Origin: a virus
Lineage: Duplodnaviria > Heunggongvirae > Uroviricota > Caudoviricetes
Virus record (IMG/VR): IMGVR_UViG_2648501787_000002
Direction: 5' to 3' (one strand)
Length of the DNA stretch: 9,468 bases
A model generated the notes under the pieces. That model was not told where the DNA came from. It made no database searches and saw nothing but the letters and a program-made list of their open reading frames with translations. The position numbers were made by a program, and so were the translations under genes. This document shows positions 1 through 9,468 of the stretch, one piece after another (the stretch's first letter is position 1; each line of letters opens with the position of its first letter).

Positions 1-98
<98 letters not shown>

Positions 99-100
99 CC

Positions 101-400
101 TCAGAACTCCATCTGGATTTGTTCAGAACGCTCGGTCTTGCACACCGGGCGTTTTTTCTTTGTGATTTCATCAAGCGCATACTTAAAAGCCCTGCTAATC
201 GGGCTGATGTCTGATGCCATTCCGAAAGCACACAAGACCGAAGCAATAAATCTCCAGTCCGTTCTGCTTATCTTCGATTCATGACAGCCAATCATCTTTG
301 CCAGACCGCGCTGTGTAAGCGTTGACAGGTTAATGAGTAAATATGTTTCTGCGCGATCAACGTCGCGCTGTGATAGTTTGCTGTAACTTGTTTGTTCCAT
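101..400 (-). CDS. cII: CII-like transcriptional activator (lysogeny establishment); C-terminal end lambda-like, N-terminal two thirds divergent
   Basis: 99-aa ORF directly downstream of cro on the same strand. C-terminus KKRPVCKTERSEQIQMEF closely matches my recollection of lambda CII (NKKRPAATERSEQIQMEF). Central helix-turn-helix-like segment TQRGLAKMIGCHESKISR. Same size class as lambda CII. Confidence 0.75.
   Translation of the reverse strand: MEQTSYSKLSQRDVDRAETYLLINLSTLTQRGLAKMIGCHESKISRTDWRFIASVLCAFGMASDISPISRAFKYALDEITKKKRPVCKTERSEQIQMEF
129..160 (+). terminator. Rho-independent terminator of an oop-like antisense RNA, inside the 3' end of cII
   Basis: Stem cgctcggt / accgggcg (8 bp, one G-U wobble), loop cttgcac, then tttttt. 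Flanking sequence matches my recollection of the lambda oop RNA 3' region (CAGAACUCCAUCUGGAUUUGUUCAGAACGCUCGG...GGGCGUUUUUU). Confidence 0.5.
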
Positions 401-538: not shown

Positions 539-748
<210 letters not shown>

Positions 749-763
749 TTAGTACATGCAACC

Positions 764-1553
<790 letters not shown>

Positions 1554-1560
1554 CACGTAA

Positions 1561-1998
1561 ATGATTAAAGAACGTATTTCTTATATCATTCCGATTGCGA
1601 TGGATGAAGGCAACCCAGTAACTCCAGTTCTTATCTATGAAATGGATAAAGACTCCCATGAAGTGGATCTATCATTTGGCGCTTTTTTTATCGGCCTTAA
1701 GGCTACAAAAAAATATTCCATAGGCATTGAGGTTTTCAATGCTCAAGAAATACCGATACCAATTGACACAAAACTGTACTCCAACCATAAGTTTTTTACG
1801 GTAGCAGAAGCCAACGATGGAGAAACCATCGTATCAACTTCTATGAGAATTAACTTCCCAAGGGTGAAAATTATCAAGCCTGGGATATTCGAAGTTAGAG
1901 CATCTCTGGTTAATCCTGATAAAGGCGAAGTAATTGATGTAAAAAGTTCGTTTTTTGACGTGAAGATAACAGGATCAGTTCGCGATGAGTTTAGATAA
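1561..1998 (+). CDS. Hypothetical soluble protein, first gene of a two-gene cargo module in the rexA-rexB slot
   Basis: 145-aa ORF starting 8 nt after the cI stop on the same strand. No recognisable resemblance to RexA or any family I know. Appears more AT-rich than cI. Overlaps the next ORF by 14 nt. Confidence 0.6.
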   Translation: MIKERISYIIPIAMDEGNPVTPVLIYEMDKDSHEVDLSFGAFFIGLKATKKYSIGIEVFNAQEIPIPIDTKLYSNHKFFTVAEANDGETIVSTSMRINFPRVKIIKPGIFEVRASLVNPDKGEVIDVKSSFFDVKITGSVRDEFR

Positions 1999-2356
1999 CA
2001 AGGTTGCTCAGCTTCGTCCAAATCAAAACATATCTCGCCCAATTGGACACTATTCCACTGATGATGCATACTCACGGCATGGTGGAGGAAACGGCGGAGG
2101 TAACATGCTTGAGGCTAGAGTTGCAAAGCTAGAGTCTGATGTTGAATACATCAAGCGCGATCTCGCTGAAGTAAAGTCAGATATAAAATCTGTAGATTCT
2201 CGTCTGTCAGGTATTGAGACAAGCATTAGCTCAGCAAAAATCACCATCAAGGCATCTGCGGTCGTTGTCAGTTTCGTGTTCGCATTTTGCGCCTACATTT
2301 TTGGAAGTTATGTTTCCAAAATCCTTGATGCCTTAAACGGACTCGTTCTTAAGTAA
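1985..2356 (+). CDS. Hypothetical small membrane protein: Gly-rich linker, coiled-coil segment and one C-terminal transmembrane helix
   Basis: 123-aa ORF with GGGNGGGN linker, heptad-like LEARVAKLESDVEYIKRDLAEVKSDIKSVDSRL, and hydrophobic stretch ASAVVVSFVFAFCAYIFGSYV. AGGAT lies 9 nt upstream of the ATG. Followed by a strong terminator. Not RexB-like (RexB is polytopic). Confidence 0.6.
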   Translation: MSLDNKVAQLRPNQNISRPIGHYSTDDAYSRHGGGNGGGNMLEARVAKLESDVEYIKRDLAEVKSDIKSVDSRLSGIETSISSAKITIKASAVVVSFVFAFCAYIFGSYVSKILDALNGLVLK

Positions 2357-2361
2357 CACAC

Positions 2362-2389
2362 AACCCGGCCTCAGCGCCGGGTTTTCTTT
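2362..2389 (+). terminator. Rho-independent terminator ending the cI-cargo (pRM) transcript
   Basis: Stem cccggc / gccggg (6 bp, extendable by two A-T pairs), loop ctcagc, then ttttcttt. Confidence 0.7.
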
Positions 2390-2546
2390 GCCTCACGATC
2401 CCCTTCACCCAATAACACATAACCAATTGTATTTATTTGAAAATTAATAGATACAACTCACTAAACATCGCAATTCAGATCTCTCGATCACCTCCCAAGC
2501 CACACCCCCCTGCAAAAAAATAAATCTATATAAAAAACATACAGAT

Positions 2547-2609
2547 AACCATCTGCGGTGATAAATTATCTCTGGCGGTGTTGACATAAATACCACTGGC
2601 GGTGATACT
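2547..2609 (+). promoter_or_regulatory. Left operator/promoter: oL3 (2547..2563), oL2 (2567..2583), oL1 (2591..2607); pL -35 TTGACA (2581..2586), -10 GATACT (2604..2609)
   Basis: Sequence ...ACATACAGATAACCATCTGCGGTGATAAATTATCTCTGGCGGTGTTGACATAAATACCACTGGCGGTGATACT matches lambda oL/pL as I recall it. Lambda similarity ends a few bases downstream of the -10. Confidence 0.9.
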
Positions 2610-2857: not shown

Positions 2858-3241
2858 ATGACACGCAGAACTCAGTTCAAAGGCAATTCACGTTCTCGTC
2901 GTCGTGAGCGTTTAAAGGCAAAGGCATTAGCTAACGGCGTACTGGCCCGCGAAGAAGCAATAAGTTCAGAAGTATTACACCGCCCTACTCTAAGCAGAGC
3001 GCAGATTCAGGCTAAAGGTACTCACGAAACGCCTGAGCGCATAGAAGACGCTAAGCCAATTAAGTTCATGGCACAGGACGTGATCTGGCAACAGAAAGAA
3101 TACAGACGCAATCTGGAGCGAGCGGCCATTGTGTACGCGAATGAGTTTGGACATAAGCAACCAGAAACTGGTGTATGTCTTCCAAACGTAGCTCTTTACG
3201 CGGCAGGCTACAGGAAATCAAAACAACTGACAGCGAGATGA
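2858..3241 (+). CDS. N: N-type transcription antitermination protein, P22 gp24-like rather than lambda N
   Basis: 127-aa ORF, first gene after pL/nutL. AGGAGG lies 5 nt upstream. N-terminal arginine-rich motif (GNSRSRRRERLKAKAL). C-terminus VALYAAGYRKSKQLTAR resembles the P22 gene 24 C-terminus (VALYAAGHRKSKQITAR) as I recall it. Confidence 0.75.
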   Translation: MTRRTQFKGNSRSRRRERLKAKALANGVLAREEAISSEVLHRPTLSRAQIQAKGTHETPERIEDAKPIKFMAQDVIWQQKEYRRNLERAAIVYANEFGHKQPETGVCLPNVALYAAGYRKSKQLTAR

Positions 3242-3766: not shown

Positions 3767-4216
3767 ATGGAAGAACAAGCAAACAAGATTCTCGTAGAAC
3801 TACTGCAAAAAGCCAGTAATGGAATAGACGCGGCTGTTTCATTTAGCCAGGCACAGATTCCTGATGTTGTTCATCAGTTGCTGCTATGGAATATGGTTGA
3901 CAGTCTGATTAAAACATTAATAGCCATTCTAACAATCCCACTGGTTTTCTGGTTTATGAAGAAGCAGTGCCAAAGAGTTGAGACAGGTAAAATCGGTGAT
4001 GAAGGATACTCATGTGAGAGGGGAAATCCCAAATACAGGCCGACAATGGTTTGGGATAGCAAAGGAGATATTAACCTTCTTATCGTGCCATTGGTTGGAG
4101 TTTTGACTCTGTGGGGGATTTTTATTATTGGTGTAGTAACCAATATGACTTGGTTAAAAATTTGGCTGGCCCCAAAACTTTACCTTATCGAATATGCAGC
4201 ATCATTGGTTAAGTAA
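3767..4216 (+). CDS. Membrane protein with two predicted transmembrane helices; possible superinfection-exclusion (SieB-like) protein by position
   Basis: 149-aa ORF with AGGTGA ribosome-binding site. Hydrophobic segments LIKTLIAILTIPLVFWFM and LLIVPLVGVLTLWGIFIIGVV. Lambdoid phages carry sieB/ral-type genes just downstream of N. Functional call is positional only. Confidence 0.5.
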   Translation: MEEQANKILVELLQKASNGIDAAVSFSQAQIPDVVHQLLLWNMVDSLIKTLIAILTIPLVFWFMKKQCQRVETGKIGDEGYSCERGNPKYRPTMVWDSKGDINLLIVPLVGVLTLWGIFIIGVVTNMTWLKIWLAPKLYLIEYAASLVK

Positions 4217-4404
4217 TTTCAGGCCGTATAATCGTCCTTCATTTTTGGCATAAACAACAGAATAAATACTGCACTGTGTATTCATTCCAACGAGTGAATA
4301 CACGGAGCAATGTCGCTCGTAACTAAACAGGAGCCGACTTGTTCTGATTATTGGAAATCTTCTTTGCCCTCCAATGTGAGGGCGATTTTTTTGACGGAGG
4401 AATT

Positions 4405-4821
4405 ATGGAAATTACAGATATTCTGGTTAATCCAGATAATTACGACCGATTCAATATCTCTACTCAATCAGTTGATTTGGGTTGCGCAACTGTCAGCGCA
4501 TGGCTACTTAATGGTAAACAGTTGGATAAATGCCTTGATGCACATATGACGGTTAACAGCTTCCTTGCAGAAAAAACACACTGGCAAGATGCTGGAGGGA
4601 AATATGCTGGATGGCTTGAAAGCATGGGATTTGAATATCAATCTGATGAAGGTTGGTGGAGCCTTATAGCTGTAACGCCTGAGACAATAGAATGCTTCGT
4701 TAAATACTCAAACGACGATGACTATAAACACCAGGTGGATTCTGCGATAGAAAGATACAAAAGAAAATCGTTCAACCACGAAATATCATCAGTTCTTGAT
4801 TTCATAGAAATCTTCAAATAA
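4405..4821 (+). CDS. Hypothetical protein (138 aa)
   Basis: Probable start at ATG 4405 (GGAGG 5 nt upstream), in frame with the longer 4351 ORF in the track. No recognisable family. Confidence 0.5.
   Translation: MEITDILVNPDNYDRFNISTQSVDLGCATVSAWLLNGKQLDKCLDAHMTVNSFLAEKTHWQDAGGKYAGWLESMGFEYQSDEGWWSLIAVTPETIECFVKYSNDDDYKHQVDSAIERYKRKSFNHEISSVLDFIEIFK

Positions 4822-9368: not shown

Positions 9369-9468
<100 letters not shown>

Follow-up and report, generated by a model that had tools for sequence, protein, structure and literature searches.

Rex, the first abortive-infection system, was discovered directly behind the cI repressor gene of phage lambda, and its mechanism is still debated. Its two genes, rexA and rexB, lie between cI and the terminator of the immunity transcript, upstream of the oL operators and the pL promoter and co-oriented with cI, and code for a soluble protein (RexA; 278-279 amino acids (aa)) and a membrane protein with four membrane helices (RexB), presumably made in lysogens. 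Here we describe a stretch of 9,468 nucleotides (nt) from a tailed phage (Caudoviricetes; IMG/VR virus record IMGVR_UViG_2648501787_000002), referred to as the window, in which the identical slot holds two other open reading frames (ORFs), ORF1 and ORF2, coding for a soluble protein (A) and a membrane protein (B), respectively. The pair was found to replace rexA-rexB as a precise cassette, to be conserved across Enterobacterales, usually right behind a prophage repressor of varying type, and to have a mosaic structure in which the soluble partner and the N-terminal peptide of B are inherited together. We tentatively consider it a candidate exclusion or abortive-infection module.

Pairs of a soluble and a membrane protein coded near immunity genes have been described elsewhere. 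In actinophages, Sbash gp30/gp31 and Butters gp30/gp31 are reportedly produced from the prophage and defend against heterotypic phages; their sequences and hosts are unrelated to those considered here, and the likeness is one of analogy, drawn from the descriptions of these pairs. In the PBSX element of Bacillus, xepA, which codes for a cytotoxic protein of two beta-sandwich domains, lies immediately ahead of xhlA, a gene essential for lysis; XepA has been proposed to collapse the proton motive force, and both proteins act on the cytoplasmic membrane (PMC6834076). ORF1-ORF2 resembles that arrangement in having a beta-sandwich gene directly upstream of a gene for a short coiled-coil protein with a C-terminal transmembrane (TM) helix. 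True homologues of ORF1/ORF2 are gp45/gp44 of the P22-like Salmonella phage epsilon34 and gp40/gp39 of g341c. Epsilon34 gp45 shares 74% identity with ORF1, and gp44 shares 61% with ORF2 over residues 1-67; the two genes show the same 14-nt overlap and the same place directly behind the repressor. They differ from the window pair in that the epsilon34 repressor, gp46, is of another immunity type and in that gp44 carries a different C-terminal coiled-coil/TM module past the hinge. The epsilon34 pair, located downstream of the repressor and without database matches, has been likened to rexA/rexB (Villafane et al., 2008).

ORF calls together with promoter and domain scans identified the window as a lambdoid immunity and early-left region, and the limits of the cassette were determined by BLAST comparison with lambda. 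Positions 525-1549 of the window matched lambda 38255-37231 (from cro to the end of cI) at 97.8%, and positions 2362-2648 matched lambda 35826-35550 (rexB stop, terminator and oL/pL) at 89.5%. The 812 nt between them (1550-2361) have no lambda counterpart and stand where lambda has 1404 nt with rexA-rexB. The left junction is the cI stop codon, and the right one is the rexB stop, just before the terminator hairpin. This confirmed that ORF1-ORF2 is a precise cassette swap for rexA-rexB between cI and the immunity terminator. The features that define the slot are the following:

740..839: oR/pR/pRM control region, separating cro from cI, where the lysogenic transcript with cI, ORF1 and ORF2 presumably begins
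840..1553, plus strand: cI, lambda-type repressor of 237 aa with HTH_3 and Peptidase_S24 domains
1561..1998, plus strand: ORF1 (A), 145 aa, PHROG family 5893
1985..2356, plus strand: ORF2 (B), 123 aa, PHROG family 6136
2362..2391, plus strand: intrinsic terminator of the immunity transcript and right-hand junction of the cassette
2540..2609, plus strand: oL operators and pL promoter, conserved right flank of the slot

ORF1 and ORF2 overlap by 14 nt and are both co-oriented with cI. Only 7 nt separate the cI stop from the ATG of ORF1, and a terminator scan of the window found none in this interval; in lambda, the cI-rexA spacer is 112 nt. The terminator downstream of ORF2 consists of a stem at 2362-2383 with eight pairs, six of them G-C, followed by TTTTCTTT, with a folding energy of -15.5 kcal/mol (z = -3.3 against shuffles). 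It is homologous to the terminator after lambda rexB, and the stretch homologous to it carries the annotation "terminator" in the records of phages HK542 and HK244. An initial annotation of the window, made from its letters alone, had proposed this same arrangement of two overlapping genes in the rexA-rexB slot, with a soluble first product and a second one consisting of a Gly-rich linker, a coiled coil and one C-terminal TM helix; the coordinates, the position relative to lambda and, as described below, the nature of both proteins were confirmed.

Both genes have recorded relatives. ORF1 matched PHROG 5893 (E = 8e-65) and ORF2 matched PHROG 6136 (E = 4e-46), both of them families of unknown function. 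The exact ORF1 protein is recorded in 1124 blocks of a public assembly collection and, in all eight places listed, stands behind a lambda-type cI in otherwise mosaic prophages. The ratio of nonsynonymous to synonymous substitution rates (dN/dS) against diverged relatives, in which synonymous change is saturated or nearly so, was about 0.10 for ORF1 and 0.26-0.5 for ORF2, a value inflated by module swapping. Since both proteins have PHROG matches and such ratios, and since ORF1 recurs in assemblies, ORF1 and ORF2 are real genes rather than chance ORFs; selection on ORF1 is strongly purifying. When a profile hidden Markov model of A was run exhaustively against 1.8 billion representatives, only 19 relatives were retrieved, the longest matches being to proteins of 131-149 aa.

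In E. coli, the pair was present at 97.5% identity or more in 14 complete genomes, including that of the enteropathogenic E. coli (EPEC) strain E2348/69, and the whole segment from cI to pL with the module was found in 15 of 5426 complete genomes. Profile scans for B, which covered one-genome-per-species and viral contig collections, detected 141 loci with a B-type gene (individual loci are given below as numbers with the prefix L). In 84 of the 141, B is immediately preceded by an A-family gene, in most cases with an overlap of stop and start codons, and in 25 others the partner is instead a protein of 102-154 aa with two CxxC motifs; divergent A-like proteins and a family of about 90 aa are among the remaining partners. 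The module was also located in Rac-like and other lambdoid prophages of Enterobacter and Yersinia. Among the 50 distinct genes found immediately upstream of A, HTH_3 was detected in 29, Peptidase_S24 in 17 and Arc in two. Most of the 50 thus code for repressor-like DNA-binding proteins, which are of several unrelated types and include a short RacR-like repressor (Enterobacter) as well as CI-like ones (Enterobacter, Yersinia and Kluyvera). Modules with the CxxC partner too often stand behind S24/HTH repressors. In some phages the partner gene even overlaps the repressor stop, by 1 nt in the epsilon34 annotation and, according to mechanical ORF calls, by 8 and 4 nt in L003 and L105 (spacings of -8 and -4). 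Photorhabdus and Xenorhabdus carry the pair elsewhere, in a tail cluster of myovirus type (Mu- or P2-like), where it is flanked by the gene for the baseplate hub and those for spike and wedge, and a terminator-like hairpin directly follows B in the Photorhabdus cluster (L025, 4529-4548). The same module thus occurs in unrelated phage backbones and positions with its own terminator, which is the signature of a moron that enters several permissive sites, the end of the repressor gene being favoured. In the Photorhabdus cinerea locus (L025, 3123-4568) and similar loci of the two genera, A-B is preceded by the gene of a 119-aa PHROG 3443 protein. More remote B-like genes in Vibrio, Pseudomonas and alpha-proteobacteria were inspected for a place in lysis cassettes; their neighbours proved to be a mixture of housekeeping and prophage genes, and they were set aside as distant coiled-coil matches.

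Comparison of the pairs with each other showed that the module is a mosaic. DNA similarity between the window and epsilon34 stops at position 2109, within the Gly-rich hinge of ORF2, and similarity to E. coli EPSSH018 and LR-60 stops at 2101. Among 50 distinct A-B pairs, identity of A was correlated with identity of the N-terminal 28 residues of B (Mantel r 0.31, p 0.001), less so with that of the coiled coil (r 0.10, p 0.004) and not with that of the TM part (r 0.04, p 0.07). Individual loci depart from the window in opposite directions: L107 and L108 are 73-74% identical to it in A and 79% in the N-terminus of B, with a TM part merely 18% identical, while L083 and L085 are 21-24% identical in A and 14-19% in the N-terminus of B, with a TM part 85-87% identical. 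Overall, B proteins 71-87% identical in the coiled-coil/TM part are paired with A proteins of 21-31% identity or with the unrelated double-CxxC partners; in L087-L092, which have a CxxC partner, B is 71% identical to ORF2 over residues 27-123. These results indicated that the partner and the N-terminal peptide of B are inherited as one unit, to which exchangeable modules of coiled coil and TM helix are attached at the hinge. Since this peptide co-varies with A while the coiled-coil/TM part is exchanged, it may be the docking site for the partner.

Three further observations concern the module. Double-CxxC partners, which are zinc-ribbon-like, precede closely related B genes in L087-L092, L103-L106, L011, L037 and others. 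In L099 and L136-L138 the partner belongs to a third family, of about 90 aa (MNEKELVKKS...DAYSDSFGYSSFG). E. coli EPSSH018 (CP125889.1) carries cI-ORF1 with a 107-aa variant of ORF2 twice, in different prophages (L154 and L155; 9280-10748 in each); the variant shares only the N-terminal peptide and the hinge with ORF2 and then continues into another C-terminal module.

The predicted structures agree with this division. The model of ORF1 is a soluble all-beta protein, an eight-strand beta-sandwich predicted with confidence (predicted local distance difference test score (pLDDT) 87.6), and no signal peptide was detected in ORF1; A is predicted to be a cytoplasmic protein. A profile search of the PDB with the A family returned nothing meaningful. 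ORF2 was modelled as a disordered segment (residues 1-39) followed by one helix from residue 40 to 121, and the following parts can be distinguished:

1985..2080, plus strand: residues 1-32, variable N-terminal peptide, predicted to be disordered (pLDDT about 45-52)
2081..2109, plus strand: Gly-rich hinge GGGNGGG, kept in nearly all relatives, and mosaic recombination joint
2105..2254, plus strand: residues 41-90, heptad coiled coil (model and alignment)
2255..2353, plus strand: residues 91-110, TM helix, and residues 111-123, conserved 13-residue tail (SKILDALNGLVLK)

Within the variable peptide, the motif V.QLRPNQ[DN][IV] is retained in relatives whose A is merely 44% identical to ORF1. The best-conserved stretch of the B family is the hinge with the first heptads, [HY]GGGNGGG..MLEA-RVAKLESDVEYIKRDI. 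Most matches of the family profile in the PDB were coiled coils, and several of these are trimers (Lpp, P22 gp26, reovirus sigma-1 and designed trimers); the stalk of B is probably trimeric. The best hydrophobic 19-mer begins at residue 92 (Kyte-Doolittle maximum 2.11), and the TM/tail region forms a helix in the model and is conserved among the aligned relatives. Neither a signal peptide nor a secretion signal was detected in B, which is predicted to be a tail-anchored inner-membrane protein with its N-terminus in and its C-terminus out.

The slot itself was then surveyed in E. coli genomes. Between the same flanks, cI on one side and the terminator with oL on the other, these genomes hold rexAB, a DUF1828 pair, PIN, NYN, KilA-N, HicAB, an SDH protease or P63C, as well as several small unknown pairs. 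The DUF1828 pair weakly matches the PADLOC candidate PDC-M24, and most of the alternative cargos are not recognised by PADLOC; among these are the slot modules of L144-L148, which include proteins of 88+216 aa and 93+183 aa, a PIN protein and an NYN protein. With conserved flanks and unrelated alternative contents, the slot is a cargo hot spot. This raises the prior for a conflict-related function of ORF1-ORF2 and is no proof of it; even if the pair does not defend, the slot remains a general hot spot with mostly unknown contents.

Based on these data, the explanation that we favour, which we hold to be plausible if short of probable, is that the pair is a prophage-encoded exclusion or abortive-infection module. 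This role is suggested by the position, by the modular mosaic resembling a sensor and an anchor, and by a weak resemblance of B to XhlA and holins. In this view the two genes form a conserved accessory operon that moves horizontally and should be expressed in lysogens as part of the cI transcript from pRM, which from established lambda knowledge we take to lie within 740..839. Transcription from pRM is proposed because of the 7-nt gap behind cI, the lack of a terminator in it and the stop/start overlap with the repressor gene in other phages. A would act as a cytoplasmic beta-sandwich binding module that docks on the N-terminal peptide of B and serves as the specificity (sensor) subunit; B, with its variable peptide, hinge, coiled-coil stalk and C-terminal TM helix, would be the membrane effector. 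Recognition of an incoming phage might shift the hold of A on B, whereupon B would re-organise in the membrane in an XhlA/holin-like manner, and the membrane would be depolarised, or the cell lysed early, before the invader finishes its cycle. A broader proposal, which we regard as doubtful, is that the pair is the E. coli member of a large unnamed prophage family of tethered-sensor immune systems, derived from an XepA/XhlA-like lysis pair that was re-purposed for abortive infection and shuffled at the hinge. Swappable sensors (the beta-sandwich A, the double-CxxC protein and the family of about 90 aa) would then dock, through the co-varying peptide, on an effector made of the conserved Gly-hinge and a trimeric, tail-anchored coiled coil.

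Several observations weigh against a defence role. By sequence, neither protein is homologous to a known defence protein: ORF1 had no match at E <= 1 in PADLOC-DB v2.0.0, and ORF2 had only weak coiled-coil matches there (CorA-like, 3.9e-3; LmuB, 3.4e-2), whereas lambda RexA and RexB, used as positive control, were recovered from the same library at 1.3e-108 and 8.6e-61. Scans of both proteins against Pfam, NCBIfam, PHROGs and PADLOC yielded only the PHROG families named above and sub-threshold coiled-coil matches, in line with the initial annotation, which had recognised neither protein. The fold of ORF1, as judged from structural matches, is a generic Ig/CBM/RhoGDI-like sandwich without a diagnostic site. 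XhlA, for its part, was rejected as a family for ORF2: its Pfam profile (PF10779) matched at 19.3 bits, against a gathering cut-off of 34.7 (E = 1.3e-3), and among 31 relatives of ORF2 XhlA was matched at E <= 0.01 in 21 (best 8.3e-6), no better than the unrelated coiled-coil family FlaC_arch, found in 22. A location beside a repressor amounts to guilt by association, because Hex of phage 434 also sits there and, in the descriptions of it on which we draw, is not a defence gene. As A and the N-terminus of B are encoded next to each other, physical linkage alone could account for their co-variation. Finally, a literature search that did not cover the work of Brenes and Laub (2025) on E. coli prophage defences found no functional, expression or phenotype study of the pair, and work on HepS, SNIPE and DefensePredictor was unrelated or without mention of it.

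These comparisons also set limits to the parallels that had been drawn in the initial annotation. The likeness to RexA/RexB holds for position and for the logic of a soluble and a membrane protein and does not extend to homology: ORF1 matched neither the Pfam RexA family nor any PADLOC entry and ORF2 did not match RexB. RexB is polytopic, whereas ORF2 has a single C-terminal helix and a coiled coil, and RexA is of a different fold class from the beta-sandwich of ORF1, which is about half its length. Of the resemblance to XhlA and holins, the layout remains (a short protein with a coiled coil and then one C-terminal TM helix), and the weak matches to the PHROG families named "hemolysin" (E = 4.7e-4) and "holin/anti-holin" (E = 2.8e-3) go with it; family membership does not, nor does a location in a lysis cassette. 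Homology of ORF1 to XepA/YomS was likewise rejected at the sequence level, where no match was found, and neither protein was among the top structural matches. The description of the system as undescribed can be kept as far as functional work is concerned, but the rex-like position was in print in 2008 and both proteins are in PHROG families. What is new here is the breadth of the family, the preference for repressor-proximal positions across unrelated repressors, and the mosaic of partner and peptide versus anchor with its at least three partner classes.

In NCBI and UniRef, relatives of ORF2 (P0021, P0022, P0030 and others) are named "hemolysin XhlA". The source of this name is the sub-threshold coiled-coil match to PF10779, and it is misleading for a cytoplasm-facing, tail-anchored protein of this kind.

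The likeliest alternative, which we nevertheless consider unlikely, is a superinfection exclusion that is not abortive. According to it, B only tethers A, or the double-CxxC partner, to the inner membrane on its cytoplasmic face; A would bind ejection proteins or DNA of an incoming phage, in the manner of P22 SieA or T4 Imm, so that genome entry is blocked and the cell survives. A long hinged stalk would hold A roughly 50 coiled-coil residues off the membrane, partners are exchanged on a retained anchor, and the pair shares the lysogenic operon with the repressor, all of which would suit a tether; the double-CxxC partners, being zinc-ribbon-like, are of a type that often binds nucleic acids, which may point the same way. 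However, B is best conserved in the hinge and at the start of the coiled coil and not as a generic anchor would be, which argues that it is more than a tether, and nothing resembling SieA, SieB, Imm or any other exclusion protein was found in PHROGs, Pfam or PADLOC.

The use of overlapping genes with a small membrane protein among their products is also what would be expected of a maintenance or addiction module, or of a lysogenic-conversion module outside defence, in which B would be a small membrane toxin checked by A that stabilises the prophage or alters the envelope. The travelling of the pair as a moron to differing sites, including the Photorhabdus/Xenorhabdus tail clusters with their own terminator, its persistence in a prophage remnant bracketed by IS100 ends (see below) and the two copies in one strain are compatible with this proposal. 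We find it distinctly unlikely, since extreme diversification and swapping of soluble partners on a conserved anchor are seen more typically in conflict systems than in conversion genes with housekeeping roles, since library scans revealed no similarity to known toxin-antitoxin families, and since the "hemolysin" name is an annotation artefact and B bears neither a signal peptide nor a secretion signal.

An auxiliary lysis function, in which the pair would aid holin-dependent lysis during the carrier phage's own lytic growth as XepA-XhlA does in PBSX, appears improbable. The gene order, with a beta-sandwich gene upstream of an XhlA-like gene, matches PBSX, the Photorhabdus pair lies in a late (tail) gene cluster, and the weak XhlA/holin profile matches would fit as well. 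The PBSX genes, however, are late lytic genes beside the holin and the amidase, whereas the window pair stands in the lysogenic operon, far from lysis genes: in E2348/69 and related prophages, holin and lysozyme lie about 8-10 kb from the pair and on the other strand. Modulation of the lysis-lysogeny switch through repressor stability or induction, as by Hex in phage 434 and perhaps linking membrane state to induction, is very improbable, since, for all the tight coupling of the pair to repressor genes of many kinds, in some cases through a stop/start overlap, it also occurs away from any repressor in tail clusters, the repressors are of unrelated types (S24 CI-like, short HTH_3 and Arc), which argues against a specific protein partner, and the slot accepts unrelated cargo.

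On the favoured reading of an exclusion or abortive-infection module, the apparent domain logic (variable partner, matching peptide and conserved stalk) is clean and gives an easily tested candidate for a new sensor/effector design. The module is small (the 812 nt of the cassette) and is present in EPEC E2348/69 and in the cultivable phage epsilon34, so that the pair is a good and cheap experimental candidate rather than a surprise. If it defends, the partner classes on one anchor, at least three in number, would be a natural system for the swapping of specificity modules, and the misleading "hemolysin XhlA" annotation that is spreading in enterobacterial genomes would be corrected.

Outside the slot, the window contains the following genes of the lambdoid immunity and early-left region:

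101-400, minus strand: cII
539-739, minus strand: cro
2858-3241: N antiterminator

Between cro and cI, a pR-like promoter (TTGACT-17-GATAAT) was located at 792-764 on the minus strand, together with an operator-like 14-mer at 820-833 that is repeated in oL at 2554-2567; the lambda pL promoter (TTGACA-17-GATACT) is at 2581-2609. N is followed by genes for a Rad52-type recombinase, SSB and an Ea22/DUF551 protein. Scans with Rfam and for tRNAs found no RNA genes in the window.

Both ends of the window (1-98 and 9371-9468) form a perfect 98-nt inverted repeat, which is the istB-proximal end of IS100 (IS21 family) and matches many plasmid copies at 100% identity. In E. coli genomes, phage homology extends only from about 98/108 to 9370. 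A 9.27-kb fragment, from cII to the Ea22/DUF551 region and without O/P and all late genes, is thus bracketed by two inverted IS100 ends: either it is a prophage remnant with a composite-transposon-like structure, or both ends of the contig enter one repeat (98 being k-1 for an assembly with k = 99).

Two other observations were made in the window. A 149-aa ORF at 3767-4216 (plus strand), without a Pfam match, codes for a protein with two or three hydrophobic stretches; it is located downstream of N, roughly at the sieB position of lambda and P22, and adds a further uncharacterised gene for membrane cargo to the pL operon. In addition, a 41-nt direct repeat with 73% identity links 1882-1922 in ORF1 (GIFEVRASLVNPD) with 4399-4439 in the ORF at 4351-4821 (GIMEITDILVNPD), and it is probably due to chance.

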